Source: an uncultured Alphaproteobacteria bacterium
GTDB lineage: Bacteria > Pseudomonadota > Alphaproteobacteria > CAWJRW01
Reading direction: 5' to 3'
NCBI GenBank assembly: GCA_963845385.1
Contig: CAWJRW010000006.1
Coordinates: 711,450-775,449, forward strand
DNA length: 64,000 bases
The notes under the pieces are model-generated. The model was given only the letters and a program-made list of their open reading frames with translations. It made no database searches and was not told the DNA's origin. Positions 4,006 to 57,567 of the stretch are shown piece after piece. The translations under genes were made by a program, and so were the position numbers. Every line of letters starts with the position of its first letter. The first letter of the stretch is position 1.

Positions 4006-4258
4006 GGACCAAAGAACCGAAACCGATGCGGCAGGAGCCGTTATCGCCCGTGCCAATCCGAGCCATGCAGCAGCGCACGCCCTGGCTTTACGCCCTGCGA
4101 ATGCAGATTCTCGGCCATGCGCGAATTGGCAAGGCAGAGCCGACGCTTAACGTTGGCGCGGCAGGCTCCTTCTTGGTAAGATTTGCCCGATGATTCATGG
4201 TTCTCGCCCGCACCGGAAGCACGCTTCCGGCGGGCCTTCTTTCATCCGCTGATCGCCC

Positions 4259-7044
<2,786 letters not shown>

Positions 7045-19636: not shown

Positions 19637-20863
19637 TCAGGCGAACGCCCGGGATTTGTGCGACAGGATCGTCAGCGCATATTGCAGCTCGATCGCGGCG
19701 GTGAAATGCGCCATCGTGAATTGCGTCTCGTAGAGCCCGTGAGCGGCGGACGACAGTCGCATTCGCAGGCCGGCGTCGGTGACAACCCGGAAGAGTGCCT
19801 CTTCGAGCGCGGTCGCGTCGACGCGGTCCACGAGCAGCGCGTTCTCGCCGTCGCGCAGAATCTCCGGGAGCGCGCCGACGCGCGTGGTGACCACCGCGAG
19901 CCCCGCCGAAAGGGCTTCCAAGAGACCAAGTGGCAAGCCTTCGTGATGAGATGGCAAGACGAAGACATCGGCCGCGGCCCGCACGCGGCGCACCGCGTCG
20001 GGCTCGAGCCACCCCGTAAAGCGAACACGCTCGCCCAGGCCCAGCGCGCATGCGAGGTCCTCATATTTGCGGCGCGCGCCGTCTCCGACGAGCGTGAGTG
20101 TCCAAGCCGCCTCGCTGAGACGCGCGGACGAGAGCGCTTGAAAGAGCTCGCGCAGGCCTTTCTTGGGACGCAGCTTGCCGACATAGAGAAGACGGCAGGG
20201 CGTACCGGGTGCAGTCGGTAAGCGCGGGGGCGCCGGGGGCACGCCGTTATAGACCACGGCAATGCGCCGGGGATCGATGCCAAGCTCCTCGCTCAACATG
20301 CGGCGCCAGATTTCGCCCAATACCACCGTGCGGTCGGCCGCACGGAAGACCCAACGCGTGAACAGACGCGCGGGCGCGGGAAGCCTGCGATAGAAATCGA
20401 TGAACAAGCCGGCATGCAAATGAAGAAGGACCGGCACGCGCAAGAGCTTGCCAACGAGGACGACAATGCCCTTGCGCAAGACGCTTGTGTTCTCCGCCAT
20501 GTTCACGTGCAAGAGCGCCACGTCGTCCGTCGCGCAGCGCAGGACCACGCGCGCAAGGGACCAAGCAAGAAAGAAGGGCGCGAAGAACACGCTGCCGAGA
20601 CCGCGGCTATCGAACACGAGAGCCCGCGGCGCGTCCGGGCGCTCTGCCCAGGCTTCGATGAGGTAGCGCACCATCCCGCCCATGCCGCCGCGCTCACGCG
20701 TGCCACCGGGGTTGATGATGAGCACGAGCGGCCGGCGCTTCTTAGGACCTCGCGCGAGAACAACGCTTGGGGCCTCGGCTCCCGTAGGGGAAGGAATAGC
20801 GCCCTCGAGTTGGCCCCTATATGGTATCTCGCCGGTCGGCATGGCCTTGATTCGCCTACGCAA
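19637..20863 (-). CDS. Glycosyltransferase family 4 (GT1 fold, GT-B)
   Basis: C-terminal FVLPSHHEGLPLGLLEALSAGLAVVTTRVGALPEIL (E-x7-E-like retaining GT4 motif). Confidence 0.75.
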   Translation of the reverse strand: MRRRIKAMPTGEIPYRGQLEGAIPSPTGAEAPSVVLARGPKKRRPLVLIINPGGTRERGGMGGMVRYLIEAWAERPDAPRALVFDSRGLGSVFFAPFFLAWSLARVVLRCATDDVALLHVNMAENTSVLRKGIVVLVGKLLRVPVLLHLHAGLFIDFYRRLPAPARLFTRWVFRAADRTVVLGEIWRRMLSEELGIDPRRIAVVYNGVPPAPPRLPTAPGTPCRLLYVGKLRPKKGLRELFQALSSARLSEAAWTLTLVGDGARRKYEDLACALGLGERVRFTGWLEPDAVRRVRAAADVFVLPSHHEGLPLGLLEALSAGLAVVTTRVGALPEILRDGENALLVDRVDATALEEALFRVVTDAGLRMRLSSAAHGLYETQFTMAHFTAAIELQYALTILSHKSRAFA

Positions 20864-20913
20864 AGAAGGAAAGCGCGCCCACGCGCCCGGGTTTGCCGGG
20901 CGTCCTTCGCCCT

Positions 20914-22364
20914 ATGATTCACCCCCATCCTCTCTATTTCGTTCACGGCATCGTCCTCGTGGCTTTGGGGGGCACCATGCTCCTGCCCGCGCTCGTCTCG
21001 GCGGCCTTGAGCGAGCCGGGGGCCGCGCCCTTTTTCCTGTCGTCCTTTGCCACGGTGAGCATCGGCGGTCTCTTCGTGCTCGTCGGACGCGGGCGCGAGG
21101 TCAGGCTGACGCGCAAAGAGGGCTTTCTGCTCACGGCGAGCGTTTGGCTCTCAGTCTCCGTCTTCGGGGCTTTGCCGATTGTGCTCACGGTTCCGAACAT
21201 CGATTTCGCTGCAGCGTTTTTCGAGTCGGTTGCGGGGATCACGACGACCGGCTCGACGGTGCTCATCGGCCTCGAGCACCTGCCCAAGGGCCTGCTCCTT
21301 TGGCGCGGGCTTCTGCAATGGCTCGGCGGCGCGGGCTTTGTCACCATGGCGCTCGTTTTGCTGCCATTTCTACAAATCGGCGGCATGCAGCTTTTCAGAA
21401 CGGAGTCATCAGACCGTTCCGAAAAGGTGTTGCCCAGCGCTCGGCAGATCGCCCTCGCGATCATAACCGCCTATGCGACGCTCACGGGCCTCTGTGCGCT
21501 TTCGTTTTGGATTGCGGGGATGAATGCGTTCGATGCCATCGTTCACGCGATGGGCGCGCTCGCCACGGGCGGTTTTGCGAATTATGACGCGTCGTTCGGC
21601 CAATTCCATTCGTATTGGATAAGGGCTATCGCCACCATATTCATGATAGCGGGTGCCACGTCGATGATCGTTGTTCGTGCGCTTGGGCCGCGGTGATTGG
21701 GTTTCAGTTTACCGCGACAGCCAAGTGCGGACGTTCCTCGGCGTGCTCGTTGTCGCGACCGTCGTGCTTGCGGGCTATCTCGTCGTTTCGGGACGCATGA
21801 CCGCAGCCGACAGCCTGAGCCACGCCGCCTTCAACGTCGTCTCGATCGTGACGACGACAGGCTTCGTCTCAACGGACTATGGGACATGGGGCAACTTCGC
21901 CGGAGGCCTGTTGTTTCTGCTCACTTTTGCGGGCGGTTGCACGGGCTCGACGTCGGGCGGGATCAAGATGTTCCGCTTCGAGATCCTTCATCGGCTGATA
22001 ACGCTTCATATGCGACGGCTCCTCAATCCGCGCGCCGTCGTGCCGGTCAAATATGCAGGCCGCCTTGTCGGCGAGGACGTGCTGCTGTCGGTGATGGCGT
22101 TTCTTGCTGGCCTATTTGGTCACGGTCGGTGTCATTGCGATCTGTCTTACGGTGCTCGGCCTCGATCCCACGACGAGCCTCACGGGCGCGGCCACCGCCG
22201 TCGGCAATGTGGGGCCTGGCCTCGGCCCCATTATCGGTCCGGCGGGCAATTTCGCCCCGCTCCCCGATGCGGCGAAGATCCTGCTCGCGGTCGGGATGCT
22301 CATGGGCCGCCTGGAATTCTTCACCCTGCTCGCCTTGTTGAGCCCGTCCTTTTGGCGCGCTTGA
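20914..22364 (+). CDS. trkH: Trk-type potassium transporter membrane subunit TrkH (copy 1), frame changes near 21690 and 22100
   Basis: GITTTGSTVL, GFVTMALVLLP, TTTGFVSTDY, GGCTGSTSGGIKMFRF, VGNVGPGLGPIIGP in three ORF-track frames. Confidence 0.75.
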
Positions 22365-22411
22365 GACCGGCTTTCCAGGGGGGAGGGGGCACACATATAA
22401 CTGTGCGAGCC

Positions 22412-23017
22412 ATGCCCCGCCCGCTGCCGCAAGACCGATCGTTCGAAGCGCTGGCCGAAGCCATTCGCGCGTGCAGGCTTTGTGCGGCGGACTTGCCCCA
22501 TGAGCCGAGGCCCGTCTTTCGCGGCCGGCCGAGCGCGCGCCTCATGATCGTCGGCCAGGCGCCGGGCACGCGCGTCCATGCCTCGGGCATTCCCTTCGAT
22601 GATCCGAGCGGCGTGCGGCTCCGCGATTGGCTCGGGCTGACGCCGGATGAGTTTTACGACGAGGCACGCGTCGCGATCCTGCCCATGGGCTTTTGCTTTC
22701 CGGGACTGAATGACAAAGGCGCGGATTTGCCGCCGCGTCGCATCTGCGCACCAACTTGGCGCGCCAGGCTCGACCCGCAGTTCGCGGCGGTGAAGCTTAA
22801 GGTTCTCGTCGGCAGTTATTCGCAACGTTGGCATCTCGGCGCGCGCCGGCGCGAAAGCCTCACCGAGACCGTTGCGCATTGGCGCGATTATGGCCCCGAG
22901 TTCGTCCCGCTGCCTCATCCGTCGTGGCGAAACAACGCCTGGCTCAAGCGCAATCCGTGGTTCGAGCGGGAGCTCTTGCCCGTGCTGCGCCGCCGCGTGC
23001 GCGAGGTGTTGGCATGA
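22412..23017 (+). CDS. Uracil-DNA glycosylase superfamily protein (family 4/5-like)
   Basis: LMIVGQAPGTRVHASGIPFDDPSGVRLRDWLGL ... VAILPMGFCFPG ... LKVLVGSYSQRWHL. Confidence 0.7.
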   Translation: MPRPLPQDRSFEALAEAIRACRLCAADLPHEPRPVFRGRPSARLMIVGQAPGTRVHASGIPFDDPSGVRLRDWLGLTPDEFYDEARVAILPMGFCFPGLNDKGADLPPRRICAPTWRARLDPQFAAVKLKVLVGSYSQRWHLGARRRESLTETVAHWRDYGPEFVPLPHPSWRNNAWLKRNPWFERELLPVLRRRVREVLA

Positions 23018-25111: not shown

Positions 25112-26044
25112 TTACGATGGCACCTTGGTGTTGAAGGCCGTCGTGCCGGAGTCTTTGAACATGTCCGTGAATGGGTCATCCGGGGTCACGGGTGCGGCAC
25201 CTTCGCGAATCGTCGTGCGGCGCATGTCCCGGCGGTGGTTGACATCGTCGTAGTTGCCGGCCCTGTGCATGCTGCACAGATTGTCCCAGATCGCCATGTC
25301 GCCGACTTTATAGGAGATATTGAACACATATTTGGGCTGGGTGGCGAACGCGATCAGCTCCTTCAGGAGCGCCCGGCCTTCCTCGCGCGGCATGCCCACG
25401 ATATCGCGCGCGTGCGAGGCGATAAAAAGTGCCTTGCGGCCAGAGCCCCTGTGAACATGCACCAGAGGATGCTGCGCGTGCGGCCGCGCGTCGATGTCTT
25501 CCTCGGTAAAGGGATAGCCGGCCGTCTTTCGCGACCACCAGATCGAATGGATAGCCTCCAGATGCTCGATCCGGTCCTTCATAGCCGCGGGCAGATCTTC
25601 ATAAGCCGTTCGCGTGTCCGCAAACCAAGTGGTACCCGCCTCGGGCGGCGCTTCATGGCACAAGAGGAGCGAATAGGCCGAGCGGACCGGCATGAAAGAG
25701 GAATCGGTGTGCCACTGCCGGTCCCCCCTCTTGTGAAGGCGGATCATCTCGTCGCTGACGATGTTGCCTTCGGTATCCAAATTGCCGGCATCGAAGAGCT
25801 CGCGGTGATTGAAGCGTCCGTTGCGGCCCGAGATGAGGGGAGCGAGCTCGATATGTCCGAAAATGCGGCTGAAGGCGATATGGGTCTCGTCGGTAAGTCC
25901 CGTGTTCCGGTAGACCGTCACCCCATATTTGCGCTGAGCCGCGATGAGGGCCTGCTTCGTCGCTTCGTCCAGGGGTTTCGCGATGTCGACGCCCGAGATT
26001 TCGGCGCCGAAATTCGGCAGGACCGGCGTGATCGTCAGGCTCAT
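25112..26044 (-). CDS. TauD/TfdA-family Fe(II)/2-oxoglutarate dioxygenase (310 aa; start at MSLTITPV preceded by AGGAGA). The ORF-track extension to 26503 runs into an IS remnant.
   Basis: WHTDSSFMPVRSAYSLLLCHEAPPEAGTTWFADT ... HRAGNYDD; RBS GTCAGGAGACCTCGACATG. Confidence 0.8.
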   Translation of the reverse strand: MSLTITPVLPNFGAEISGVDIAKPLDEATKQALIAAQRKYGVTVYRNTGLTDETHIAFSRIFGHIELAPLISGRNGRFNHRELFDAGNLDTEGNIVSDEMIRLHKRGDRQWHTDSSFMPVRSAYSLLLCHEAPPEAGTTWFADTRTAYEDLPAAMKDRIEHLEAIHSIWWSRKTAGYPFTEEDIDARPHAQHPLVHVHRGSGRKALFIASHARDIVGMPREEGRALLKELIAFATQPKYVFNISYKVGDMAIWDNLCSMHRAGNYDDVNHRRDMRRTTIREGAAPVTPDDPFTDMFKDSGTTAFNTKVPS

Positions 26045-26535
26045 GTCGAGGTCTCCTGACAGAGACAATACGCGCGAGGCGGCGGCACCGTCTACGGGTA
26101 GCGGCGCGGGTTTGGCGGCCTGCGCGGGTTCGTTCGCGGGAAGATCGGCGAGCAGCCCCGGGCGCGGCGTCTTGAGATTGGCGCGGCTCGCCTCGCGCAG
26201 GTCGCGTGCGATGACATTCTCGATCTCGGTGATCATGCCGGAGGCGACCTTGAGGCGTGTCGCCAAAAGCACGGGCTTATTCCACTCGTGGATGACGCCG
26301 AAGAAGCCGGCTTGGCCGCTCACGGGATCGGCGAGCTTAATGTTGAACGCGGTCGGGCCGCTCGTCGCGCTGACCCACAGACCGTCGCCCGCGGGAATTT
26401 GCGCGGCGAGGACGTCTCGGTACGCCTCGGGGCGGCATACTGGGACCCTCGATCCGAATGGTGGATGCATCCTGCGGGCGGCTGGCGGCTCTCGATGGCG
26501 CACTGGAGCGCCGCGAGTGTCAATCGGGAATCCAT
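26045..26535 (-). mobile_element. Decayed IS3-family transposase OrfB (integrase core) remnant, multi-frame
   Basis: RLTLAALQCAIESRQPPAGCIHHSDRGSQY (IS3 DDE signature) in frame 26320..26673; weak GFFGVIHEW (cf. ESFFGTLKTE) in the adjacent frame. Confidence 0.55.
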
Positions 26536-26539
26536 GAAG

Positions 26540-26652
26540 CGCGCCACCGCAGAGCCGGAAAGGTCGCCCTCACCGCCGTCATGCGCAAAATGCTCGTCAC
26601 CCTCAATGCCATGGCTCGTAATCATGAGCCCTGGAAACAGGCTAACCCTTGA
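26540..26652 (+). mobile_element. IS110-family transposase C-terminal fragment (~35 aa)
   Basis: RRAGKVALTAVMRKMLVTLNAMARNHEPW matches the conserved IS110 C-terminus (AGKP-KVALVAVMRKLL-LANALLR-W). Confidence 0.55.
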
Positions 26653-26752
26653 CTCACAACACGGTAGATCCAAAAATTGGTCTCACATCAATGAGGATCG
26701 GGCTCTACTCATCGCTGGATGAAAGAAAGGGCTCAGGTCAGTGCCATAGGCC

Positions 26753-27415
26753 TTGTTTAATAAAACCTCTTATTTTGGATCGCGTCCTTCGATGCAGCGT
26801 GAGGGTGGCATATGGTCGGTGTTGGGTGCTGCCTCGATCTATTCGTCGTTTCAGGATTTCCTGGGCGCTGACGCAGCGCGGCGGGCATTCGTCGCGCGAC
26901 ACGTTCGGCCGCACGCCGGCATGCGCATTCTCGATGTTGGTTGTGGCCCTTCCGACATATTTGCGCATCTGGATCAAGTGACCTATGTCGGCGTCGACCG
27001 ATCAAGCAATTATATCGCTGCGGCGAAGGCCAAGTTCGGCCATCGTGGCACATTCATCTGTGGCGATGTCACGGAGCTCAAACTTCCAGTTGACGAGAGA
27101 TTCGACGTGGTTCTTGCGATTGGCCTTCTACATCATTTGAGCGACGCAGAGGCGATATCGCTCATGTCCAGCCTAACCGCCTTGCTCTCGCTATCAGGAC
27201 GCTTCGTTACTGTTGATCCGGTGAAGGAGAACCAGCAGCATCCCATAGCCCGGCTTATGATTTCTCTTGATCGCGGGAAGAACGTGAGGACCAAAGAGCA
27301 ATATGTAAGCTTGCTTCGGTCGTCCTTTAGGACAGTCGAAGCCGCCGTTTATCGCGATCTCATGCGTATTCCCTATAGCCATTTGATCGCAGAGGCGCGC
27401 AGCTCCGGAGATTGA
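26753..27415 (+). CDS. Class I SAM-dependent methyltransferase (island gene 1)
   Basis: RILDVGCGPSD motif I; FDVVLAIGLLHHL; lower-GC codon usage. Confidence 0.75.
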   Translation: MFNKTSYFGSRPSMQREGGIWSVLGAASIYSSFQDFLGADAARRAFVARHVRPHAGMRILDVGCGPSDIFAHLDQVTYVGVDRSSNYIAAAKAKFGHRGTFICGDVTELKLPVDERFDVVLAIGLLHHLSDAEAISLMSSLTALLSLSGRFVTVDPVKENQQHPIARLMISLDRGKNVRTKEQYVSLLRSSFRTVEAAVYRDLMRIPYSHLIAEARSSGD

Positions 27416-27712
27416 TCATGAGACCCTCTCTTGCGGTCGCCGGGCGATGAAGCAAATCGCGATCATCCCCTCAAATTACATTCATTATTCTCGATGCCGT
27501 ACGGGACACGAAGAACGACTAGAGTAGTCGCAACCGTATTCCAACGGCCTCGGGCGGACTTTGGCTCACGATCCCGCAAGCGGGTGCGTCATGGTGGCGA
27601 TCCCTCCTATCCGCAGCTCCAGGCGGCTTTTGATCCCTATGTGAGCGTTCTCGACCAGCTGATGAATAAGGGCCCGGGAGCCCGGCGCAAAATGAAGTGT
27701 GGGTCTGGACCG

Positions 27713-28560
27713 TCACCCGGGAGCAAGATGGCTGAGGCGCACGCGCAACGGCGTCGCCCAGCGCGCGGGCCAGCGCCGCAGCAAGGCGAGCGCGCCTGTT
27801 GCACGGAAAATGCGGGCCGCCGCTACCAAACCGCGATGACGGCGCGCGAACTCTTCATCGACCAAGAGGCGCTCCAAGGCTTCGGCCATTACGCCTTGGT
27901 CGAAAGCGATCGAGAGGCCATTGCGTCGTGCCAGGGCACGCAAGCGCGACGCTGTCACGAAGTTTAGGCTCCGCCAAAGCTCATCCTTGCGCAGGTGCCG
28001 CGCCCAGGGCGTGCGTGCCGGTATGACCGGCAGGAGTAGAATGCCGTAGTGCGGTTCGTAGGGGACCTGGTAATTGGCGCAAGTGTAAATCATGACCCCG
28101 CCCGCAGCGAGGACGCCCGACATCGCCGCCATTGCTTCGTCGAGGGCGGCAATGTGCTCCAGCACATTGACGCTGAAGATGACGGAAAACCTGCCGTGCA
28201 GCTTGGGATCGAGGTCTTCGGCGCCAATGCGGTGAAGTTTCACTTGCGTCGCGCGAAGTCGCGCATGGACGGCTGCCATCAAAGGATGAATTCAGCGGGA
28301 AGCCGGTACCTTCCGGCTCGACCGCCTCGATTTCTACGCCTGCACGTGCCAGGAAGGCCGTAAAGAGTCCAATACCGGCGCCGACTTCGAGCACACGCCC
28401 GTCGAGCGGCACATTACGTAAGAGTTCTCACGCCGACCGGCAGTTCCGCGGGCGAAGATTCGAAGGTAGTAGGATGCGGTCGACGTGTCGCATCCGGCGT
28501 CGGCCGCACAGCCGGCCACAAAGGCGGGCGCGCCAATCTCAGTGAGGAAGTCTGCGACCT
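27713..28560 (-). CDS. Class I SAM-dependent methyltransferase (island), frame changes near 28285 and 28425. Start uncertain.
   Basis: RVLEVGAGIGLFTAFLARAGVEIEAVEPEG (motif I) in ORF 27981..28412, FSVIFSVNVLEHIAALDEAMAAMSGVLAAGGVMIY in ORF 27713..28282. Confidence 0.65.
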
Positions 28561-28646
28561 GCGCAGCCGAGACCCCTGCACTCATGGAGTTGTACGGTAC
28601 GGCAAACGGGACAACCGGATCACCGGCAAGGCCGAGCGCGCCACCC

Positions 28647-29342
28647 TCATGAAGCAATGCGGATTTGCGACCGTTTACCGCCAATCCGCGTGCCGCTTCT
28701 CAAATTGCTGTAATAGTGCTCGGTGAAGCCGGCGGCCTTCATCGGCGCGGCGATTTGTTCGATATCGTAAGCCACGCGATGGAGTTTCATTTCGGCACCG
28801 GTCCACACGGCGAATGCCGCTCGCGGATCGCCGTCGCGCGGTTGGCCGACCGAGCCCGGATTGCAGTACCACTTTTCGCCCAGTGACCAAAGGCCCTGAA
28901 CATGCGTGTGACCCGAGACGAAGATCGTGCCCTCACGCTCGGCGAAGTAATCCGGCGAAATCATGTTGATATATTCGTCAAGGGGGTCATTCCATCCGGC
29001 ATGCACCAGCGACAGCTCGCCAATTCGCAGCACACCGCAGTGTGACTTCGACAACCATGCCAAATTATCCGGGGTTATGACACGGCGTTGCCAATCGAGA
29101 CAGGTGTTCGCACTATTCGAACGCGGGCATGCTTGGCTCGAGATCAAATAATGGTCGTGATTTCCAAGCAGGTTTCGAATGCCGCGGCGGCGGAGCTCGT
29201 CGATGCATTCGTTGATCATGCAGTAATAGCCACCGACGTCGCCCAGGGAGATCGTCTCGTCAATGCCGAGCGCGTCGATGGCGCTTAGGACGGCCCGCAT
29301 CGCGGGATAATTCCCGTGGATGTCAGAGATGATCGCCATCAT
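28647..29342 (-). CDS. Calcineurin-like metallophosphoesterase (YfcE/MPP family)
   Basis: MMAIISDIHGN, LGDVGGYY, GNHDHY, GHTHV phosphoesterase motifs. Confidence 0.8.
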   Translation of the reverse strand: MMAIISDIHGNYPAMRAVLSAIDALGIDETISLGDVGGYYCMINECIDELRRRGIRNLLGNHDHYLISSQACPRSNSANTCLDWQRRVITPDNLAWLSKSHCGVLRIGELSLVHAGWNDPLDEYINMISPDYFAEREGTIFVSGHTHVQGLWSLGEKWYCNPGSVGQPRDGDPRAAFAVWTGAEMKLHRVAYDIEQIAAPMKAAGFTEHYYSNLRSGTRIGGKRSQIRIAS

Positions 29343-30294
29343 AGGAAACAATGTCCTCAATATAGCGTACGGCAGTGCCGCTTCGGATCGGGCGATCGTC
29401 CGGCAGGCGGCCGTGCAAATAGTAGTCGATGCAGGCCGCCGCTTCATTATAGCCAAAGGCGCAGCGAATGGAGGTCGCCGACGAAATCCGTGGATTGATT
29501 TCGAGCAAATAGGGCGTGTCGTCCTCGACCCGGAACTGGAAATTCGTCGGACCGAGAGGATGAAACGTCTGTGCGAGCTGATCGATCAGGCGCTGGAAGG
29601 GTTCCCCGGATACTGTCTTTGCCTTTGCCGTCGCGCCTTCGCCGCTGAGGCGGCGCTGCAAGGCCATGAGTTGACCGATGCCGCCCCGGCCATCCCCGAA
29701 GCCGCTTATCGTAAACTCGGCGTCATCGCGACCGACAATTCGCTGTGCCATCAGCGTTTGGCCGAACTCTGCGCCATGATAGATGAAGTCACGTTCATCG
29801 CGGATGCGCACGATTCCTTTGCCGGCATAACCGTGACGCGGCTTCAATAGAAATGGCAGGCCGAGGCTCTGTGCAAGGTCGGCGAAAGTGCCATCGATGC
29901 GGCTCGGAATGGCTGGGGCGCCGAGGCCGACCAAGGCTTGATGCATTCGCCATTTGTCGTCGGCGAGCTCTATGAGCGCCGGTGAGTTCAGCGCAATTCT
30001 CGCATCGTAACGCTGTGACGCCGCCGCCTGGCGCGCGAAAACGGACATGTCCTGCTCGATGCCCGGAATGACAAGATCGATCGCGTGCGTACTGATCACA
30101 TCGCGCAGGAAAGCGTCATAGCCCGGATCGCTGACGAGGCAAGATTGGACGAATTGATCGCACCAGTGCTGTCCGGCAGCATCCGCGAAGATGTCCATGC
30201 CGACAAGATAAGGAGCGGGCTTCAGCTGTTTCAGCGTGCGGAGAATGCCATAGCCAATGACCGCACCAACACCCGTGACGAGAATGCGGTTCAT
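29323..30294 (-). CDS. ATP-grasp domain ligase (carboxylate-amine ligase-like)
   Basis: LPFLLKPRHGYAGKGIVRI ... YLLEINPRISSA (ATP-grasp C-terminal motif); overlaps its neighbours at both ends. Confidence 0.75.
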   Translation of the reverse strand: MNRILVTGVGAVIGYGILRTLKQLKPAPYLVGMDIFADAAGQHWCDQFVQSCLVSDPGYDAFLRDVISTHAIDLVIPGIEQDMSVFARQAAASQRYDARIALNSPALIELADDKWRMHQALVGLGAPAIPSRIDGTFADLAQSLGLPFLLKPRHGYAGKGIVRIRDERDFIYHGAEFGQTLMAQRIVGRDDAEFTISGFGDGRGGIGQLMALQRRLSGEGATAKAKTVSGEPFQRLIDQLAQTFHPLGPTNFQFRVEDDTPYLLEINPRISSATSIRCAFGYNEAAACIDYYLHGRLPDDRPIRSGTAVRYIEDIVSYDGDHL

Positions 30295-31152
30295 GATGCG
30301 GCGCTTTGCTTTGCTGCTATCGCCCCGAAAATATCACGAAGGCTCCAGGGTTGAACGTCCAGATTAGTCCAGGTCGAAGTTGCGTCGGGAACATAAATTG
30401 ACTTCAGATCCGCTTTCGCGGGATCGCGGAGGACCTTGCCGCCTTTCTTGAATTGCGCCTGGGCAAGCTCGGCGATCTTGGTAATCGACATCCGGTCGGG
30501 TCCCGCACAGACAAACACACCCGCCTTGGTGTGCTGTACGATTGCGACAACGGCAGCCGCGACATCCGTGACTGAAACGAAATTGCGAATGGGATCGGCT
30601 TTCCCGTGAATTATGATGTCTCGACCGCTGGCTGCATGATCAACGATCGTCCAGAAAAGCGGCTGGTGGCGGCGACTAAGGCCGTCCACATCCACGATTT
30701 GACTGGGCAAGACGGTCGTGAGGCTCAGACCATTCCGTCCGCAAAGCGAACTCAAGGTTTTCGGCACCCTGCTGTTTGGACAAGCCGTAGGAGCCAAAAT
30801 ACTCATTCTCGGGATGATCGATGGCGAACAGACTCGAGACGAAGACGATATGTCGCGCGCCGACACGTAAGGCGACCTCGCCGACGAGGATGGCCCCGAG
30901 CGCGTTTATTTTCGCATTCTCACGCATCCCCGCAGGGCTATCGCCCAGAAATGAGGCGGCGCAGTGAATGACGGAGTCGACCTGCATTGTGCCGGTGTCA
31001 GGCGGCTCAAACGCTGAAAGATCGAGATAGAGGTCGTTGTCAGGATGGCGTCCAGCCGACCAGACGTGAGTGTCGACGGCCCTGAGCCGTACGGTAATGT
31101 GCTGCGCCAGCATCGACGATGCACCGACCACTAGGACGCTGCGCCTCTGCAT
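30291..31152 (-). CDS. NAD-dependent epimerase/dehydratase (SDR family), frame change near 30720-30760
   Basis: SVLVVGASSMLAQHITVRL Rossmann motif; YGLSKQQGE catalytic YxxxK; stop overlaps the ATP-grasp start (ATGA). Confidence 0.7.
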
Positions 31153-31378
31153 CCCGCCTTCCTCTGAAATTTTTCCTGCCCCCAACTTTGGTCAGGCATC
31201 ATGTGCTGCGCGATCTGCGGCGGCAAGAGCGCATGTGCGACGAGCTTTCATCGCGATAACCGCGAGAGTCGGGCAATCCCGTCCGTGCAAATCCGCGCCG
31301 CGTCCGAAACTGCCTTGCATCGGTGGCGAAGATATGCGAGTGGTCCGACGGTGATCCGGCTTTGCACATCGGCATGCA

Positions 31379-32353
31379 ATGGATGTCTCTGTCATCATAC
31401 CAACCTACCGGAACGCGCGCGTGTTGCTCGAGCTTGCGCGACGATTGGTGGACACACTTTCGGCATCCGTTGGCTCCTTCGAAATCATTCTAATCGACGA
31501 CGGAAATCGCGACAACACCTGGGCCGTGATCTCGGACTTGGCGGCCAAATATCCGCAAGTCAAAGGGATTCGCCTGTCGCGGAATTTCGGCCAGCATCCG
31601 GCCATCGCTGCCGGTTTCAAGGCGGCGCAAGGCCAGCGCATCGTCTTGATGGACGCCGATCTCGAAGATCGGCCGGAGGCCATTCCCGAACTCCTCGCTG
31701 GTCTCGATGGCGGCGTAGACATCGTGTTTACGGTGATTGCCAATCCCAACGAGCATTCCCGCCGTCGCATCACGTCGATGCTTTTTCGTGGGGCATTCTC
31801 TTATTTGTCGCCGATGGAATTCCCACCGAATGTCGGGACGCTGAGGGCCTTCACCCGTCAAGTCCTTGAAGCTATTCGACAATATAACGAATATAATGTA
31901 CTATATGGTCCTCTGATGTTTTACTTGGGGTTCAATTGCAAGTTCATTGAAGTCATGCGCGGCCCATCGGCGCTCGGCGGCAGCAGCTACAGCTTTCGGC
32001 GACGCCTCCGGCTCGCGTCAGCCACGCTCTTCAGTTACACGAATTTGCCGAACACCATTTTCCTTGTCGGGGGTGGTATTCTTCTTGGCTTGGCGCTGTT
32101 GTATATCTTGTTGATCCTCGGCCAGTACATTTTTTTCGGTCCTGTTGCGTCAGGTGGTTTCGTCTTTCTCGCGCTACTCGCATTGGGCGGGATAGCAGTC
32201 AACTTGATCGCTTTCGGCGTAATCGGCACCTATGTATACCGTGTCTACCAGGAGGTGTTGGGGAGACCAAGATATCATGTGATGGCCGTGACGGGGAGCA
32301 TGTCGACTGGACGCGGTCAAAATGCGAAAGGCTTTGAGGTTGACGGACAATAG
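31379..32353 (+). CDS. GT2 polyprenyl-phosphate glycosyltransferase (GtrB/ArnC/DPM1-like) with C-terminal TM helices
   Basis: VSVIIPTYRNAR ... IILIDDGNRDNT ... LMDADLEDRPE; two C-terminal hydrophobic helices. Confidence 0.8.
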   Translation: MDVSVIIPTYRNARVLLELARRLVDTLSASVGSFEIILIDDGNRDNTWAVISDLAAKYPQVKGIRLSRNFGQHPAIAAGFKAAQGQRIVLMDADLEDRPEAIPELLAGLDGGVDIVFTVIANPNEHSRRRITSMLFRGAFSYLSPMEFPPNVGTLRAFTRQVLEAIRQYNEYNVLYGPLMFYLGFNCKFIEVMRGPSALGGSSYSFRRRLRLASATLFSYTNLPNTIFLVGGGILLGLALLYILLILGQYIFFGPVASGGFVFLALLALGGIAVNLIAFGVIGTYVYRVYQEVLGRPRYHVMAVTGSMSTGRGQNAKGFEVDGQ

Positions 32354-33182
32354 CAAGGAATGGCGGGCGAAGGTTCTGGCAGCCAATCGTGAGGTCCACG
32401 GCAGGCTTGCCGATGTCTATGAAAAGACCGAACCTCATTTCCGCCCTGAGAATCAAAGCAAAGTAAAAGAACGCCTCGCTCGCATCAGTAAGCGCACAAG
32501 CGCCGAACGGCTCCTCGATATCGGTTGCGGCACAGGGTTTATACTGCGTCAGGCGGTCGGGGTCTTCAAGCGAATCGACGGCATCGATATCACACAGGAA
32601 ATGATCGCCCGCATTCCCGATCTCGGTCCGACCGTTCATGTGCAGTTGGCCGAAGCGGAGGCGCTGCCATTTCCGGATGCAACCTTCGATGTCGTTTCCG
32701 CCTATTCCGTCTTCGACCATCTGGTCGATTACCGCGTCACCTTGCGGGAAGTCGCGCGGGTCCTAAAGCCCGGAGGCATATTCTACGCCGATCTCATTCC
32801 GAACCGCTGTTTTTGGCAGGCGCTCGGCGCCCTGGATGCAAGCGCTGTCCCAACTCTCTCCGACATTGTCGAACGCGAATGGCGCATGGTTCATGAAAAC
32901 GATAAACGCGTCGAGGCGGAGTTCGGCGTCGACTCCGAGGCGTTCCGCAATGCCGAGCCCGGCAAGTTGGAGGGCGGCATCGATGCGGAAGAGGTGTGCG
33001 CCTCGGCGCGCAAGCTCGGATATTCGCAACCCGAATTTCATTACGATTGGTTCCTCGGCCAAGGCGCCGTCATGCACGGCCAATCGTTCGAGGAGGCGGC
33101 GGTCATCGAGACCTATCTCGAGCGCGTGACGCCGCTCTCTCGCCATCTCTTCAAATATATCTATTTCGTTCTCACCAAGTAG
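32322..33182 (+). CDS. Class I SAM-dependent methyltransferase (island)
   Basis: RLLDIGCGTGFILRQ motif I; FDVVSAYSVFDHL; VLKPGGIFY. Confidence 0.75.
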   Translation: MRKALRLTDNSKEWRAKVLAANREVHGRLADVYEKTEPHFRPENQSKVKERLARISKRTSAERLLDIGCGTGFILRQAVGVFKRIDGIDITQEMIARIPDLGPTVHVQLAEAEALPFPDATFDVVSAYSVFDHLVDYRVTLREVARVLKPGGIFYADLIPNRCFWQALGALDASAVPTLSDIVEREWRMVHENDKRVEAEFGVDSEAFRNAEPGKLEGGIDAEEVCASARKLGYSQPEFHYDWFLGQGAVMHGQSFEEAAVIETYLERVTPLSRHLFKYIYFVLTK

Positions 33183-33189
33183 GCATTCC

Positions 33190-33972
33190 ATGCCGACGGT
33201 GCCCTCGCCAACCCTTCTGAAAGAGTTCGATGAGATTGGTTTCACGATCATCAACAACATGATCTCGCCCGCCGAGGTCGCAGAGATGCGGCCGCTGCTG
33301 CAATCCTGTATCGATGCGGACATCGCCAATTGGCAGGGCAAGCCCGGCTATATCGATCACTGGATGGTGCATAACCTGATGGTTCGCGGCGAGCCCTTTC
33401 TACGCTTGCTCGAGAACCCGTCTCTGCATGCGTACCTCGAAGCGGGATTCTCCAAGAATGCGATCTTGTATGCCTATACGTCGTCCAGCATGCCGCCACA
33501 TGGCAGCAACTATTCGCGACGAATCCATGTCGATTGTCCGCGGGTGATCCCGGGATACCGAACGAATGTCGGGTTCCTCGTGGCGCTTGACGATTTCACG
33601 CTTGAGAACGGCGCCACATACGTGTTGCCCAAGTCGCAATGGCGCAGCGATCCGCCCTCGGAAGAAGAATTTCTAGCCAATGCCGTGCGCCTGATGCCCA
33701 AGTCGGGCGACGCCATCTTCTTCAACGCGCGGACTTGGCACATGGGCGGTCAGAACAATACGGACATTCCCCGGCACTCGGTAACGTTGAATATTTGCCG
33801 GCGCTACATGCGCCAGCGCTTCGATTACCCGCGCCTGGTGCCGCCCGGGCTTGTCGCAAAGCTCGGGCCTGTCGGCCGGCGTTTTCTGGGCTTCGAAGTG
33901 CGCGTACCGACAAGCCTTGAAGAGTACTACGTCTCACCCGAAGAGAGACTCTATTTGCCGGCGGAAGAATGA
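33190..33972 (+). CDS. Phytanoyl-CoA dioxygenase (PhyH)-family Fe(II)/2OG oxygenase
   Basis: HVDCPRVIPGYRTNVGFLVALDDFTLENGATYVLPKSQ ... ARTWHMGGQN. Confidence 0.75.
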   Translation: MPTVPSPTLLKEFDEIGFTIINNMISPAEVAEMRPLLQSCIDADIANWQGKPGYIDHWMVHNLMVRGEPFLRLLENPSLHAYLEAGFSKNAILYAYTSSSMPPHGSNYSRRIHVDCPRVIPGYRTNVGFLVALDDFTLENGATYVLPKSQWRSDPPSEEEFLANAVRLMPKSGDAIFFNARTWHMGGQNNTDIPRHSVTLNICRRYMRQRFDYPRLVPPGLVAKLGPVGRRFLGFEVRVPTSLEEYYVSPEERLYLPAEE

Positions 33973-34040
33973 AAGCGCGGCACCCCGTCACGCGTTCCTC
34001 GCATTTGCAGTCGCTTCGCAATCGAAGGAGAGCGCATTCT

Positions 34041-34852
34041 TGACCTATCTATGGCGCTTCTTGAAGCAGACACCACTCTCGATTCTCCTGTATCGCATCT
34101 TCACATACCCATTCCCGTATCGCATTGGTCTTGCGCGGTTGTGGTTCACCCTCCGGCCGCGAACGCGCCCTCACTACTACGCTTGCATGTTGGAGGCGGC
34201 GCTACTGGCTCGCGCGCTCGATCATCGGTCTATTTCCGTTCTTGAGTTTGGCGTTGCCAGCGGCAATGGCCTGCTGGCGATGGAGCGCTATGCCGAAAAA
34301 ATCCAGCGCCGCATTGGAATAGAGATCGCGCTCTACGGTTTTGACATGGGTGATCAAGGCGGGCTGCCGGCGACAACCGATCCGCGCGATATGCCTTACC
34401 TTTGGCCGCCAGGCGCTTACAAGATGGATTTCGCGCGGCTCAAAGCGCGACTGCGGCGCGCGGAGCTGCGGCTCGGCAATGTCGCCGAGACCGTGCCCGC
34501 CTTTGCCAAAGAAGCAATCGCGCCCATCGCAGCCGTTTTCATCGACGTCGACTACTACTCATCCACCATGGAGGTCTTGAAGCTTTTCGACCTTGCCAAG
34601 GGGCGGACCTTGCCGCGTGTGGTTTGCTACTTTGACGACGTCGATGTCTCCAACACGTTCAACGGCGAGCTCGCCGCCATCATTGGCTTCAATGCAAGTC
34701 ATTCCCATCTCAAGATCGCGCGCGTTGATAGCCACCACACGGCCGTCCTCTATGGCACCTTCAACAATCACGTGTTTCATCTTCATGATTTTGAACACCC
34801 GGCTTACAATCGATATATTCCCGGTGGCGTCGTCGAGGAATTGCCACTCTGA
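34041..34852 (+). CDS. TylF/MycF/CmcI-like (class I, family 3) O-methyltransferase; probable TTG start after AAGGAGA
   Basis: ISVLEFGVASGNGLLAM ... VFIDVDYYSSTMEVLKLF ... RVVCYFDDV resembles the macrocin/sugar O-methyltransferase family. Confidence 0.5.
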
Positions 34853-34891: not shown

Positions 34892-35290
34892 TCAGCGTTC
34901 ATGAGACAGGTTGAGTGGTTTTGCTAAGAGTTTGACTTGAAACGATGGCATTGATTTCAAGCTCTTGCGAGCCGGCGCGTGATGAGCCGGATATGGGCGA
35001 TGAAGACCCAGGCGGCGGCGCTTGAGATGGTCGCTTCGAAGCCCTTGGCCAATCTGCGGCATCGGTGAAGAGATGACGCAACCACGGATAAAGCCTGCGG
35101 ATGGTGGTGAGCACGCCGGGGGCGCCGTCGCGGTCTTGGATATCGGCAGTATGCACAACCGCGCCGACAAGATGACCTTGCGTGTCGGTGACGATATGGC
35201 GCTTCGGCCCTTGATCTTCTTGCCCGCATCGAACCCGCGTGGGCCGCCGCTTTCCGTGGTCTTCACCGATTGGCTGTCGATCACACCTGC
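34892..35290 (-). mobile_element. 5'-truncated, frameshifted IS5-family (IS427/IS1031-like) transposase remnant spread over three frames
   Basis: IDSQSVKTTESGGPRGFDAGKKIKGR / KRHIVTDTQGHLVGAVVHTADIQDRDGAPGVL / NRCRRLAKGFE...IAHIRLITRRL correspond to successive conserved IS5 transposase blocks. Confidence 0.7.
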
Positions 35291-35631
35291 ACTGGGGCTC
35301 GGTCCCGTCCCGCCTTCTCACGCGCGGCCATGACGAGAGCGTGCGTAGGCGCTGCACGGTACGCGGCGGGGATAAGCATAAAAGGCGCGTGGCGGAAGTG
35401 CTCTAGCAAACGTCCAAGGTCCGCGACATTGCGCGGCAAGCCTTCTTCGCGCAAACGCGGAAGGGCGAGCTTCGCAAGGCATTTGTCGTAGTCCGCAACC
35501 TTGTCCCCGTCGCTGCCAAACAAGCGAAGCGCAAGGTCGGCGGCGATACTCTCTAGATCATCGGCAACATTGACGAGGTGGCGCGGAAGCTTGCGCGGGC
35601 TGTGTGTGAAACGCGATTGACGAGCGCTCAT
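35281..35631 (-). CDS. Hypothetical protein (116 aa), no recognised domain
   Basis: Intact ORF only; located between the IS5 remnant and tRNA-Val. Confidence 0.3.
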   Translation of the reverse strand: MSARQSRFTHSPRKLPRHLVNVADDLESIAADLALRLFGSDGDKVADYDKCLAKLALPRLREEGLPRNVADLGRLLEHFRHAPFMLIPAAYRAAPTHALVMAAREKAGRDRAPVQV

Positions 35632-35870
35632 AGCTGCCTCTCCTTCGGTTACTGTGACGGGAAGGCCAAGGCGACACGCTACGCCGCGCCCGGCCGTATC
35701 AGACGCAACAGGAACAAGGGCGGCACACTATCGGGGCCGCGCCGGTATCTCTTAAATAGGAGATATCAACTCTTATATAGTAGTTAAGGGGCAGGCAAGA
35801 AAAAGGCGCCCGGCCGGATCGGGGGCGCCTCTAACTTGACCATATCTCCTATATATGGGACGTTTCGGCC

Positions 35871-36071
35871 ATGCCGGGACCAAAGCCGCGATACACGGCA
35901 AGCTTCATCTTTCAGCTAGAGCCGCGCGACCTTGCGGCGCTCAAGGCGTGGGCCAGGGCGCATGACATGTCGGCTGCGGCGGTGGCCCGTCTTGCGGTGC
36001 GGGAATTTGTAAGTTCGGCCAAGCCTGGACGCCCAAAGGCCCGGAAGGGCAAGGCACCGGCTGGCAAGTAG
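35871..36071 (+). CDS. Small basic DNA-binding-like protein (66 aa), possibly ribbon-helix-helix
   Basis: RDLAALKAWARAHDMSAAAVARLAVREFV followed by a Lys/Arg-rich tail; inverted repeats upstream. Confidence 0.4.
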   Translation: MPGPKPRYTASFIFQLEPRDLAALKAWARAHDMSAAAVARLAVREFVSSAKPGRPKARKGKAPAGK

Positions 36072-36316: not shown

Positions 36317-36391
36317 TGGTGGGCGCGACAGGGTTTGAACCTGTGGCCCCTACGATGTGAACGTAGTGCTCTACCGCTGAGCTACGCGCCC
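36317..36391 (-). tRNA. tRNA-Val (anticodon CAC), 75 nt including CCA
   Basis: Reverse complement GGGCGCGTAGCTCAGCGGTAGAGCACTACGTTCACATCGTAGGGGCCACAGGTTCAAACCCTGTCGCGCCCACCA folds as a cloverleaf. Confidence 0.9.
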
Positions 36392-50827: not shown

Positions 50828-50929
50828 TGTAATCGCGCCACAATGTGGTGTCGTATCGCATCGATTGGCCCGTTAAGATTGGGGTTGGTCGCCGTCGTCG
50901 ACTTGGGAAGGGGGTCTGGAAGCCGCCCG

Positions 50930-53271
50930 ATGTCCACGATGTCAAGCGTAACGGGGCAAGGGCGAGCAGGGGCGCTCGCCCGATTGATCCGCTGGGCGCC
51001 ACGGGCGCGCGGCGGCTTGCTGGCGGCGACCCTGGCCTTGCTTGCCATCGTCGCCGCGGGCCTCACTTATGCGGCGCTTACGAGCAGCGCGCCGTTCGCC
51101 AAAAGCAAGACTGTTCTCTATCTTCTTCTGTCCTCCAACCTTGTCATCATCCTTAGCACTCGCGGGCCTTATTGCCTGGCTCTTGGTGCGCGTGAAGGCG
51201 GCGCGCCGGTCGGGGGTAGCGGGAACCAAGCTGCATTCGCGGCTCGTCGGGCTGTTCGCCCTCATCGCCGCCGTGCCGGCAATCATCGTGGCCGTGTTCT
51301 CGGGCGTCTTTCTCTTCATCAACATCGAATCCTGGTTCAGCGCGCGCCAACGTTCGGTGATCGACAGCGCCGAGATGGTGACCGACGCCTATTTCCGCGA
51401 GCACCAGCTCCGCATCATGGCGGAAGCCATTCCGATCGCCGAGGAGATCGACCGCCAAGGGCCCTTCATCGCCTACGATCCGAACAAGCTCACGGAGCTC
51501 TTGCGCGTCTGGCGACGCTGCGCGCGGTTCCGGGCGTCTACATCATCAGGCGCGACGGGTCGATCGTGGCGGGCGTCAAGCTCGATCCCGACCTCGAATA
51601 TGTGCCGCCTCTCGAAGAGGCGTTGCAGGAAGCCGAGCTCGGCAAGACCGCGATCTATGCGGCCTATAGCGCGAGCCAGGTGCATGGCCTGAAACGGCTC
51701 GCCGCTTTTCCCGACGCCTATCTTTACGTGGTGCGCTATGTCGATCCCCGCGTGGTCGACCATTTGCGCGAGACGCGAAAAGCACGCTCGGAATATGAGC
51801 GCGCCGAGAGCCGGCGCACCCTCATGCCGATTTACTTCTTCGTCGTCTATCTCGTCGTTGCGCTGTTCATTCTGCTCGCCGCGGTGTGGCTCGGCATCTG
51901 GGCCGCCAACCGCATCGTGGCGCCCATCGGACGCCTCATCAGCGCCTCGGAGCGCGTAAGCCAAGGCGATCTTGCCGTACGCGTCGCCGTAGGCCCGAGC
52001 GACGACGAAATTGGCTCGCTGGGCCGAGCCTTCAACCGCATGACGGCTCAGCTCGAAACCCAACGCGGCGAGCTCGTCGAGGCGAACCGCCAGCTCGATC
52101 GGCGGCGCCGCTTCACGGAAGCGGTGCTCTCCGGCGTGACCGCGGGCGTGATCGGGCTCGACGGCGAGGAGCGGATTACGCTCGTCAACCGCTCGGGCTC
52201 GGCAGCTCTTGGGCGCCGCGCGCGAAGAACTCGTGGGCCAGCCTTTCGCGCGCATGGTGCCAGAAATGGCGCCGCTCCTGCGTGCGGCGCAGGCGAGCCC
52301 AGACCGCACCGCGCAGGGCCAAGTCGAGCTTGTCGCGCGGCGAGGGGCCGCGCAATTTCACGGTGCGCGTGATGCGCGAAGTGAGCGGCGAGGACGATCT
52401 CAAAGGCTTCGTCATTACCTTCGACGACATCACCGAGCTCATGGCCGCCCAACGCATGTCGGCCTGGGCGGACGTCGCCCGCCGCATCGCCCACGAGATC
52501 AAGAATCCCCTTACACCGATCCAACTTTCCGCCGAGCGTCTCCGCCGCAAATACCGCAACGAGGTTCGCGAGCCCGAGGTCTTCGAGCAGTGCACCAACA
52601 CCATCATCCGCCAAGTGGGCGACATCGGCCGCATGGTGGACGAGTTTTCTTCCTTCGCGCGCATGCCGGCGCCTGTCATGACCGAGGAGGACTTGGCCGA
52701 CATTGCACGCCAAGCCGTGTTTCTGCAGCGCGTGGCCCATTCCGAGATCGATTTCGTGCTCGAAGGCGCCGATGCGCGCATCGACCAGACATGCGACCGC
52801 AGGCTCGTAACCCAAGCGCTGACGAACATCATCAAGAATGCCGTGGAAGCAATCGGTGCGCGCCGGGAATTGGAGCACAACGGCGACTATCGGGGCCAAG
52901 TCCGCGTGAAACTGTCCGAAACCGCGGAGCGCAGCATCATCGAGGTGGTGGACAACGGTTGCGGCTTGCCGCGGGAACAGCGGCATCTCCTCACCGAGCC
53001 TTATGTGACGACGCGCGTGAAAGGCACCGGGCTTGGGCTCGCCATCGTCAAGAAGATCATGGAGGACCACGGCGCCATGCTCGCTCTCGAAGATGCACCG
53101 GGGGACAACGGCGAGCGTAAGCGGGGCGCGCTGGTGCGGCTATCATTCTTGAAAACGCCGCTCGAAGCAGCAAGCGTGGAGTGCAGTGCAGCAGGGGGTG
53201 GGTTATGGCGTCTGACATTCTCATCGTCGATGACGAGGCCGACATTCGCGAGCTCATGGCAGGCATATTGA
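50930..53271 (+). CDS. ntrY: Sensor histidine kinase NtrY, at least three frame changes; both ends approximate
   Basis: TM region, HAMP (VAPIGRLISASERVSQGDLAVRV), H-box [22 protein letters not shown] boxes NIIKNAVEA, GTGLGLAIV. Confidence 0.8.
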
Positions 53272-57552: not shown

Positions 57553-57567
57553 CGAAACTCATGGCCC

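Follow-up and report, generated by a model that had tools for sequence, protein, structure and literature searches.

A genome paper on Pseudomonas putida ITEM 17297 lists a locus, also for P. chlororaphis and P. brassicacearum, that encodes a transaminase RffA, a metallophosphoesterase, a carbamoyl-phosphate synthase subunit L, an NAD-dependent epimerase, a methyltransferase, a WbqC-like protein and glycosyltransferases, and gives it no function (PMC7932912). In Campylobacter jejuni, Cj1438C, the C-terminal ATP-grasp domain of the amidoligase Cj1438, uses serinol phosphate, and the HAD phosphatase Cj1435 then removes the phosphate (PMC11800397). In Neisseria meningitidis the ATP-grasp/phosphoglycosyl transferase protein PglB2 leads to 4-glyceramido-2-acetamido-2,4,6-trideoxyhexose; the N-acylation, in which a hydroxy acid is placed on the 4-amine of a 4-amino-4,6-dideoxy sugar, is ascribed to its ATP-grasp domain (PMC11130364, PMC6959607). 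The type B flagellin locus of Clostridioides difficile, CDR20291_0244-0247, encodes an FdtB-like aminotransferase, an ATP-grasp protein annotated as carbamoyl-phosphate synthetase and a FemAB-like protein, and when the ATP-grasp gene CDR20291_0245 is mutated the terminal peptidylamido sugar is missing from flagellin (PMC5207246). The fliA-fliC cluster of Dickeya dadantii holds a transaminase, a "carbamoyl phosphate synthase", an oxidoreductase, a methyltransferase and two glycosyltransferases; in the mutant of the "carbamoyl phosphate synthase" flagellin has a mass of 31,034 Da, compared with 32,170 Da in the wild type and 28,890 Da for the unglycosylated protein (PMC6637903). Our literature search found no paper combining WbqC with ATP-grasp, and the papers it found combining ATP-grasp with a metallophosphoesterase included none on flagellin glycosylation. 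Here we analyse a four-gene block in a 64,000-nucleotide stretch (the window) of contig CAWJRW010000006.1 from an uncultured Alphaproteobacteria bacterium. Three of these genes, for an extended short-chain dehydrogenase/reductase (SDR), an ATP-grasp ligase and a calcineurin-like metallophosphoesterase (MPE), are the conserved, translationally coupled core of a cassette that very probably tailors a 4-amino-6-deoxy sugar.

Read directly from the sequence, the minus strand between 27,713 and 31,152 consists of four gene-sized stretches, and Pfam backs each of the family labels that an initial annotation had given them:

30291..31152, minus strand: SDR, extended, of the "epimerase/reductase" type and nucleotide-sugar class; Pfam Epimerase over two open reading frames (ORFs), frame broken once at ~30,740
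29323..30294, minus strand: ATP-grasp ligase, intact, 323 aa; PF15632 E 1.7e-12, PF02655
28647..29342, minus strand: calcineurin-like MPE, YfcE-like, intact, 231 aa; PF12850 E 2.7e-16
27713..28585, minus strand: S-adenosylmethionine (SAM) methyltransferase, ~295-aa type; two ORFs with Pfam methyltransferase pieces

The gene order and the two overlaps described in that annotation are present in the sequence. The ATP-grasp ATG (30294-30292) shares the ATGA at 30291-30294 with the TGA of the upstream SDR frame. The MPE begins at ATG 29342 (MMAIISDIHGN), with a GAGGA 11 nt 5' of this start, and stops at 28647; the ATP-grasp stop codon is at 29325-29323, and the two genes overlap by 20 nt (29323-29342). 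This overlap is dual-coding: in one frame it specifies the end of ATP-grasp (YDGDHL*), in the other the beginning of the MPE (MMAIIS), and the latter runs directly into the first metal motif, DIHGN. Dual coding so close to a metal motif may be the reason why the length of the overlap is conserved across phyla. The gap before the methyltransferase, put at ~90 bp in the annotation, is in fact 61 nt from the MPE stop to ATG 28585. The picture of four tightly packed genes thus holds for order and coupling, whereas two of the four reading frames, those of the SDR and the methyltransferase, are interrupted.

To place this block among its relatives, ATP-grasp homologues were sought in one genome per species and turned up in 292 species. 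Eighty loci were kept and two more came from protein look-ups, giving 82 non-redundant loci from Pseudomonas, Betaproteobacteria, Alphaproteobacteria, Bacillota, Bacteroidota, Verrucomicrobiota, Planctomycetota, Saccharibacteria, Melainabacteria and others. An MPE gene lies directly downstream of ATP-grasp in 80 of the 82, with the 20-nt overlap in 62 of those 80, and an SDR gene lies directly upstream in 61, with the 4-nt ATGA overlap in 46 of those 61. This arrangement is far beyond chance, and the co-occurrence of the neighbours, which the annotation had put forward as a check, is very strong. Around the core, a DegT aminotransferase is found within 10 kb in 73/82 loci, WbqC in 71/82 (the other 11 have no WbqC nearby), and a NodS/BioC-like methyltransferase, an upstream gene with weak matches to BioC, trans-aconitate methyltransferase and NodS, in 69/82. 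Glycosyltransferases of family 2 (GT2) come in two forms, a small ArnC-like one (35/82) and a large one of 1180 aa (13/82). The window fits the pattern in having the MPE just downstream of ATP-grasp with the 20-nt overlap; its SDR has the ATGA overlap and a broken frame, maybe through an assembly error, and the DegT gene and an intact WbqC are missing from it.

These loci have a glycan context. In Pseudomonas the cassette adjoins flgF-flgK and fliC, and its DegT protein scores 634 bits against TIGR02379 (dTDP-4-amino-4,6-dideoxy-D-glucose transaminase), where the cut-off is 435. One Bacillota operon is self-contained, with genes for RmlA, an ArnC-like GT2, a methyltransferase, SDR, ATP-grasp, MPE, WbqC, a small EamA-type membrane protein, DegT and RmlB, and a Lachnospiraceae locus additionally has two EamA genes (ArnE/F-like) and a DUF6056 membrane protein. 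Glycosyltransferases, either ArnC-like or for flagellin, are found in the cassettes together with RmlA/RmlB and flippase-like genes. A non-glycan reading suggested by the Pfam name of PF15632, in which the product would be a nucleoside-like metabolite of the Ter-operon type, was dropped: every context that we saw is one of glycan biosynthesis. Separately, two tandem paralogues of ~325 aa follow the MPE at L058 11591-13559 and in 16 other loci, in cassettes of the Flavobacterium/Burkholderiales type; they have weak matches to GH32/GH130-like beta-propellers.

The ATP-grasp protein of the window is above the cut-off for both PF15632 and PF02655. Against NCBIfam NF009402 (PRK12767.1-1, "carbamoyl phosphate synthase-like protein") it scores 210.7 bits over its full length, just short of the cut-off of 218, and by this measure it is a close outlier of a family without a named function. 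It falls far below the models of housekeeping relatives: 20.5 bits vs 318 for PurK, 19-25 bits vs 599-1027 for the CarB models and 26.6 bits vs 143 for the RimK family; a PDB sequence search gave D-Ala-D-Ala ligase only E 0.13. Judged by these profiles it is not a housekeeping enzyme, and its neighbours, as the counts above make plain, are not unrelated genes; the subfamily check that the annotation had called for therefore speaks for its reading. An AlphaFold2 model of the protein reaches pLDDT 90.4, and the predicted three-domain ATP-grasp fold is certain. Foldseek placed 2pn1, an uncharacterised structural-genomics protein, at the top (E 2e-21, TM 0.78), followed by biotin carboxylase, PurK, PurT and PylC with TM 0.72-0.76 at 13-21% identity. 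The nearest folds of known function are thus biotin carboxylase domains, PurK, PurT and PylC, and the last three each couple a small carboxylate to a substrate amine. In a 20-sequence alignment that includes the window protein, all 68 family-invariant columns are kept in it, and the ATP/Mg residues K151, E265, N267 and R269 (LLEINPR, E-x-N-x-R) are invariant. PDB sequence and fold searches with both ATP-grasp and MPE returned no assignment at the level of substrate.

These fold relationships could be taken further. An enzyme that acts like PurK or PurT would N-carboxylate an amino sugar with bicarbonate or N-formylate it with formate, and the adjacent BioC/Tam-like methyltransferase would then methyl-esterify the carbamate. 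The best matches of known function (carbamoyl-phosphate synthetase, biotin carboxylase, PurK and PurT) and the BioC, trans-aconitate methyltransferase and NodS matches of the upstream methyltransferase speak for such a route. We nevertheless find it very improbable: identities of 13-21% are generic to the fold, the phosphoesterase would be left without a role, and we know of no bacterial surface glycan with a methyl carbamate.

The MPE matches PF12850 with 60.4 bits against a cut-off of 27 and the YfcE model TIGR00040 with 41.8 bits, under the cut-off of 56. Its metal motifs are complete (D7/H9, G34-D35, G60-N61-H62-D63, H114, G144-H145 and H147) and invariant in 12 family members, and the closest solved structure is 3rqz, whose function is not known. 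The family also has an invariant cysteine-rich insert (C46, C72 and C81; consensus CPRSNSANxCLDYQR) outside the standard metal motifs, which may be a substrate-binding cap. For the SDR, the best match of the family profile is GDP-fucose synthase (E 1e-18), followed by UDP-Glc 4-epimerase and RmlD; the N-terminal piece carries VVGASSMLA, SS and YGLSK (YxxxK), and the second piece holds the C-terminal domain. Its sequence places it in the extended nucleotide-sugar class and does not allow a reaction to be assigned.

More distant relatives of the ATP-grasp protein bear on what the phosphoesterase is for. Among 1.84 billion representatives a profile search found 639 clusters at E<=1e-30 and 4,799 at E<=1e-10. 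In the more distant of these relatives ATP-grasp is sometimes fused, to a phosphoglycosyl transferase in P0220, to FemAB-like domains in P0214 and P0229 and to a PHP-domain phosphoesterase in P0268. A sister clade, mostly from Verrucomicrobiota (L087 6056-8982, L090 5252-6975, L085 691-2367), has a PHP phosphoesterase in place of the MPE, adjacent or fused, and its ATP-grasp is often fused to a FemAB-like domain. In three loci of this clade PHP is encoded by a gene of its own just upstream of ATP-grasp, which in two cases overlaps the ATP-grasp start, and the neighbours there are again a methyltransferase, an SDR, a DegT protein (LegC/PseC-like) and a phosphoglycosyl transferase. The PHP partner has weak, generic NCBIfam matches to histidinol-phosphatase and PolX PHP models, which do not fix its substrate. 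One ATP-grasp family thus has, as recurrent neighbours, two phosphoesterase folds that are unrelated to each other, and this twofold partnership is the strongest evidence that we have for a phosphoester hydrolysis within the reaction sequence. The link between ligase and phosphoesterase that had been proposed from the four genes is in this way reinforced by the PHP protein of the sister clade. The phosphoglycosyl transferase and FemAB-like fusions suggest that an amino sugar is acted upon when it is loaded onto lipid and that an amide or peptide is formed.

As a whole, the explanation that best accounts for these data, and to which we give about an even chance, is an amino-sugar tailoring cassette in which the ATP-grasp enzyme performs N-acylation and the MPE trims a phosphate. 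Its reactions are extrapolated from the precedents of C. jejuni, Neisseria and C. difficile. RmlA/RmlB and the DegT enzyme would make a dTDP-4-amino-4,6-dideoxyhexose. The ATP-grasp enzyme would activate a small carboxylic acid as an acyl phosphate and link it through an amide bond to the 4-amine of this nucleotide-linked sugar; that it makes an amide on the 4-amine is an assignment we lean towards by a narrow measure. The acid or the intermediate would carry a phosphate ester, which the MPE would remove, and we propose this trimming after ligation, by analogy, tentatively and as the less probable part of the scheme. The SDR, the methyltransferases and the PhyH dioxygenase would modify the sugar or the acyl group. 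Finally, the ArnC-like GT2 would load the finished sugar onto undecaprenyl phosphate, or, in Pseudomonas, the large glycosyltransferase would put it on flagellin.

The initial annotation had supposed that the ligase activates a carboxylate on a nucleotide- or lipid-linked sugar and forms an amide there. The glycan context and the amide survive in our reading, but the sugar is more likely the supplier of the amine, because a DegT 4-aminotransferase accompanies 73/82 loci and no uronic-acid-forming gene, UDP-sugar dehydrogenases included, was noticed in the cassettes that we inspected, where no dedicated search for such genes was made. The opposite polarity, in which a uronic-acid sugar supplies the carboxylate, a phosphorylated amine is coupled to it by ATP-grasp and the product is afterwards dephosphorylated by the MPE, as with Cj1438C and Cj1435, has in its favour the direct biochemical precedent of capsule decoration by an ATP-grasp amidoligase and, after it, a phosphatase (PMC11800397) and the conserved partnership of ATP-grasp and phosphoesterase. 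We regard it as unlikely, given that the conserved partner is a sugar 4-aminotransferase, that no obvious maker of a phosphorylated amine was seen and that uronic-acid genes went unnoticed in a survey that was not systematic.

Several observations weigh against N-acylation of an amino sugar followed by phosphate trimming. The reactions of the cassette enzymes are read from families, context and precedents. The role given to the MPE is argued by analogy, because ATP-grasp chemistry itself leaves no phosphate ester, and the PHP partner is absent from the sister-clade contexts L088 and L089. WbqC is a putative glycine transferase in one annotation (PMC7253198), and it could be the N-acylating enzyme instead of ATP-grasp. 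The window itself has no aminotransferase, RmlA/B or flippase. The nature of the MPE also has to be considered. YfcE-like MPEs are usually diesterases, and our MPE has a partial PDB match to SapH (3qfm), which we take to be an Ap4A hydrolase; such a match would fit nucleotide cleavage instead. MPE-superfamily enzymes such as LpxH cleave the pyrophosphate bonds of UDP-sugars. Together these three points are what favours a nucleotide-sugar pyrophosphatase (LpxH/UshA-like) that removes the nucleotide from an intermediate and leaves any acyl-group phosphate alone. Yet the glycosyltransferases of the cassette, whether ArnC-like or the flagellin enzyme, need a nucleotide-activated sugar, and the SapH match is confined to a 35-residue N-terminal metal motif; a pyrophosphatase is to our mind a rather remote prospect.

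If phosphate trimming after N-acylation is right, it may extend beyond this cassette. ATP-grasp plus a phosphoesterase, MPE or PHP, could be a general two-enzyme unit that N-acylates 4-amino-4,6-dideoxyhexoses, nucleotide- or lipid-linked, with a phosphorylated acid from central metabolism, e.g. phosphoglycerate, and then dephosphorylates the product. We consider this generalization doubtful. Were it true, it would be a biochemically undescribed route to N-acyl amino sugars without acyl-CoA or acyl carrier protein, and it might account for glyceramido sugars such as the Neisseria one.

In the window, the four genes sit in a ~9-kb block (26.3-35.4 kb) of 57-60% G+C, compared with 63-68% in most of the remainder. 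The other features of this island and its surroundings are:

26320..26673, minus strand: IS3-type transposase fragment at the left island edge; partial rve domain, E 4e-6
26753..27415, plus strand: class I SAM methyltransferase, 220 aa; Pfam Methyltransf_25/31/11
27478..27706, plus strand: WbqC-family relic; tblastn matches to WbqC residues 27-59 and 194-232
31153..31378, no strand: intergenic region separating the divergent SDR and GT2 operons; coordinates from sequence
31379..32353, plus strand: ArnC/GtrB/PgfS-like GT2 of the polyprenyl-phosphate sugar transferase type; PF00535 E 1.4e-29
32322..33182, plus strand: SAM methyltransferase, 286 aa (MT286); Methyltransf_11 E 1.9e-23
33190..33972, plus strand: PhyH-family Fe(II)/2-oxoglutarate dioxygenase; PF05721 E 2e-17
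33851..34852, plus strand: weak Methyltransf_24-like ORF, start uncertain (overlaps PhyH); PF13578 E 0.0019, below cut-off
34892..35357, minus strand: IS5-type transposase fragment in two frames at the right island edge; DDE_Tnp_1 E 1.3e-7
36317..36391, minus strand: tRNA-Val(CAC), just outside the island; ARAGORN, Rfam

The GT2, MT286, PhyH and weak methyltransferase-like genes diverge from the SDR operon, and the 220-aa methyltransferase and the WbqC relic converge on it. A search for sigma-70-like promoters and convincing terminators found none, the divergent region included. The GT2 has a hydrophobic C-terminal stretch and scores 161 bits for NCBIfam PgfS and 148 bits for ArnC, both under the cut-off. 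Relatives of the GT2 and of MT286 lie inside cassette L037, which has no PhyH homologue; MT286 and PhyH adjoin the methyltransferase-SDR-ATP-grasp-MPE genes in L017, L049 and L052, and PhyH homologues occur in L017, L038, L049 and L052. The 220-aa methyltransferase has homologues of 37-45% identity in L025, L028, L034, L045 and L077, and elsewhere its relatives sit between the 295-aa methyltransferase and DegT; the 295-aa type belongs to betaproteobacterial cassettes, and both types are downstream of the MPE in L028, L034, L045 and L077. Because these plus-strand and convergent genes recur in cassettes elsewhere, the whole island, and not the four genes alone, is to be seen as one cassette. 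The best explanation that we can offer makes the minus-strand genes one arm of an island for surface-glycan tailoring that was gained by horizontal transfer, and as an explanation of the whole it stands evenly balanced between right and wrong. By megablast the IS5 fragment matches copies of IS5 on plasmids, those of Methylocystis among them, and a search for direct repeats marking the island ends beside tRNA-Val found none.

This local copy is incomplete, lacking the aminotransferase and having WbqC only as a relic. Searches of the 64-kb window by tblastn with three DegT types found no DegT aminotransferase, and RmlA, RmlB, a small EamA flippase and the upstream NodS-like methyltransferase are likewise absent from it. 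The WbqC relic has an in-frame stop at an invariant Trp, a deletion of ~135 codons and one frame change; its translations, TFIILDAVRDTKND*SSRNRIPT... and ...PYVSVLDQLMNKGPGA, agree with the family consensus, and it cannot be a sequencing artefact. The WbqC family profile found no relative among solved structures.

The interrupted frames are a separate matter. The "epimerase" at 31152-30291 spans 862 nt, a length not divisible by 3, and is read in two frames: ORF 30676-31185 covers positions 1-149 of the Pfam Epimerase profile and ORF 30291-30866, in another frame, positions 188-231, and the best homologue aligns over residues 9-141 and then 134-282, with the frame change near 30,740. The methyltransferase starting at ATG 28585 leaves its frame at ~28,430 and re-enters it at ~28,295 by direct reading; its SAM-binding motif VLEVGAGIG is out of frame, the nominal frame has two stops, and the homologues from L045, L028, L077 and L025 align with it in two frames. 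Genes outside the island are broken as well. gyrA (4197-6706, plus strand) occupies three frames or more and is broken near 4,480, 5,040 and 6,140: ORF 4197-5096 supplies the first 33 profile positions, ORF 4399-5172 corresponds to E. coli GyrA residues 64-251, and ORF 5027-6706 picks up at residues 252-624, its match ending ~190 residues before the ORF does. ntrY is split, with HAMP and HisKA/HATPase in two overlapping ORFs, one copy of trkH is interrupted likewise, and the same is probably true of a class IV aminotransferase gene that precedes hfq; the regions concerned are 50843-53271, 20893-23017 and 56328-58778, all on the plus strand. The order ntrY-ntrX-trkA-trkH-aminotransferase-hfq resembles what we take to be an alphaproteobacterial core region. 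The phase of a codon-position GC plot jumps at the corresponding places. Because gyrA, ntrY and trkH are broken in the same way, the three breaks in the SDR and the methyltransferase are fairly probably assembly indels. Many other genes of the window are intact, and such errors must therefore be clustered. Frame breaks are here poor evidence for pseudogenes, and pseudogenization as the cause of the three breaks was dropped on account of gyrA in its at least three frames and of ntrY and trkH.

Whatever the family does elsewhere, the copy in the window could still be a non-functional remnant. Such a reading draws on the WbqC relic with its stop codon and lost codons, on the absence of DegT, RmlA/B, flippase and upstream methyltransferase from the 64 kb, on the insertion-sequence fragments at both sides and on the three frame breaks. 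The last of these loses force since gyrA, ntrY and trkH have breaks of the same type, probably assembly errors. Moreover, ATP-grasp and MPE keep every family-invariant residue, 11/82 loci do without a WbqC nearby, and the aminotransferase could sit elsewhere in the genome. We see a remnant as a serious possibility, though we incline to the view that the copy is not one.

Three further observations concern the surroundings. Between the IS5 fragment and tRNA-Val lies a 66-aa ribbon-helix-helix-like ORF (35871-36071, plus strand), preceded by a 19-nt inverted repeat (35748-35766 / 35842-35860), which may be a leftover regulator of a mobile element. At the other side, a TauD/TfdA-family dioxygenase ORF (25112-26503, minus strand) has ~155 extra N-terminal residues without a Pfam match; probably its true start is internal, or else a fragment of a neighbouring gene is fused in frame. 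A family-4 glycosyltransferase gene (19637-20863, minus strand) lies ~6 kb outside the island in DNA of normal G+C, and the host therefore has other polysaccharide genes nearby.

Altogether, the coupling that the initial annotation had pointed out is real and conserved, and its interpretation was right in spirit, with the sugar more likely as amine donor. The cassette, whose core enzymes have putative reactions, occurs in at least 292 species and is a worthwhile target. The two unrelated phosphoesterase folds beside one ATP-grasp family yield a concrete hypothesis for how a class of N-acyl amino sugars could be made. Given its place in the flagellin glycosylation region of Pseudomonas, the cassette probably has a part in forming a surface structure that hosts, phages and immune receptors encounter. 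The window adds another, partly decayed, member to a widespread cassette and, being incomplete, is not the best place for a test; incomplete as it is and set in an error-prone assembly, the window copy is a useful lead and not a surprise.

The described systems resemble the cassette to different degrees. The Dickeya cluster can be likened to it by annotation only and lists no metallophosphoesterase. The C. difficile locus likewise has aminotransferase and ATP-grasp together, and a FemAB-like protein as in the sister-clade fusions; its ATP-grasp protein, however, is of another subfamily (Pfam ATP-grasp_4, PF13535), its sugar is a 3-amino sugar and no phosphoesterase has been described. PglB2 is like the sister-clade protein P0220 in its Bac_transf plus ATP-grasp architecture, and the best 120 relatives of P0220 include no Neisseria protein. 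The Pseudomonas loci are the closest counterparts. They have the gene set of the cassette, "subunit L" being the ATP-grasp protein and RffA a transaminase of the RffA/WecE type, show the same 4-nt and 20-nt overlaps and share 50-52% identity in ATP-grasp. Unlike the window, they are complete, with a transaminase and an intact WbqC, and they lie beside flg/fliC with the 1180-aa GT2, whereas the window has the ArnC-like GT2, extra methyltransferases and PhyH, and no flagellar neighbours. The C. jejuni pathway differs in its parts: the sugar, glucuronate, gives the carboxylate and the phosphatase is a HAD protein, whereas the cassette has an amino sugar and a calcineurin-like MPE, or PHP in the sister clade. 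With neither the HAD partner nor the uronic-acid acceptor of Cj1438C/Cj1435 seen in the cassette, the resemblance is one of logic. An ATP-dependent amide on a surface sugar, a phosphorylated co-substrate and a dedicated phosphoesterase are nonetheless elements that the two would have in common, and by analogy this logic would explain why ATP-grasp and MPE are paired.

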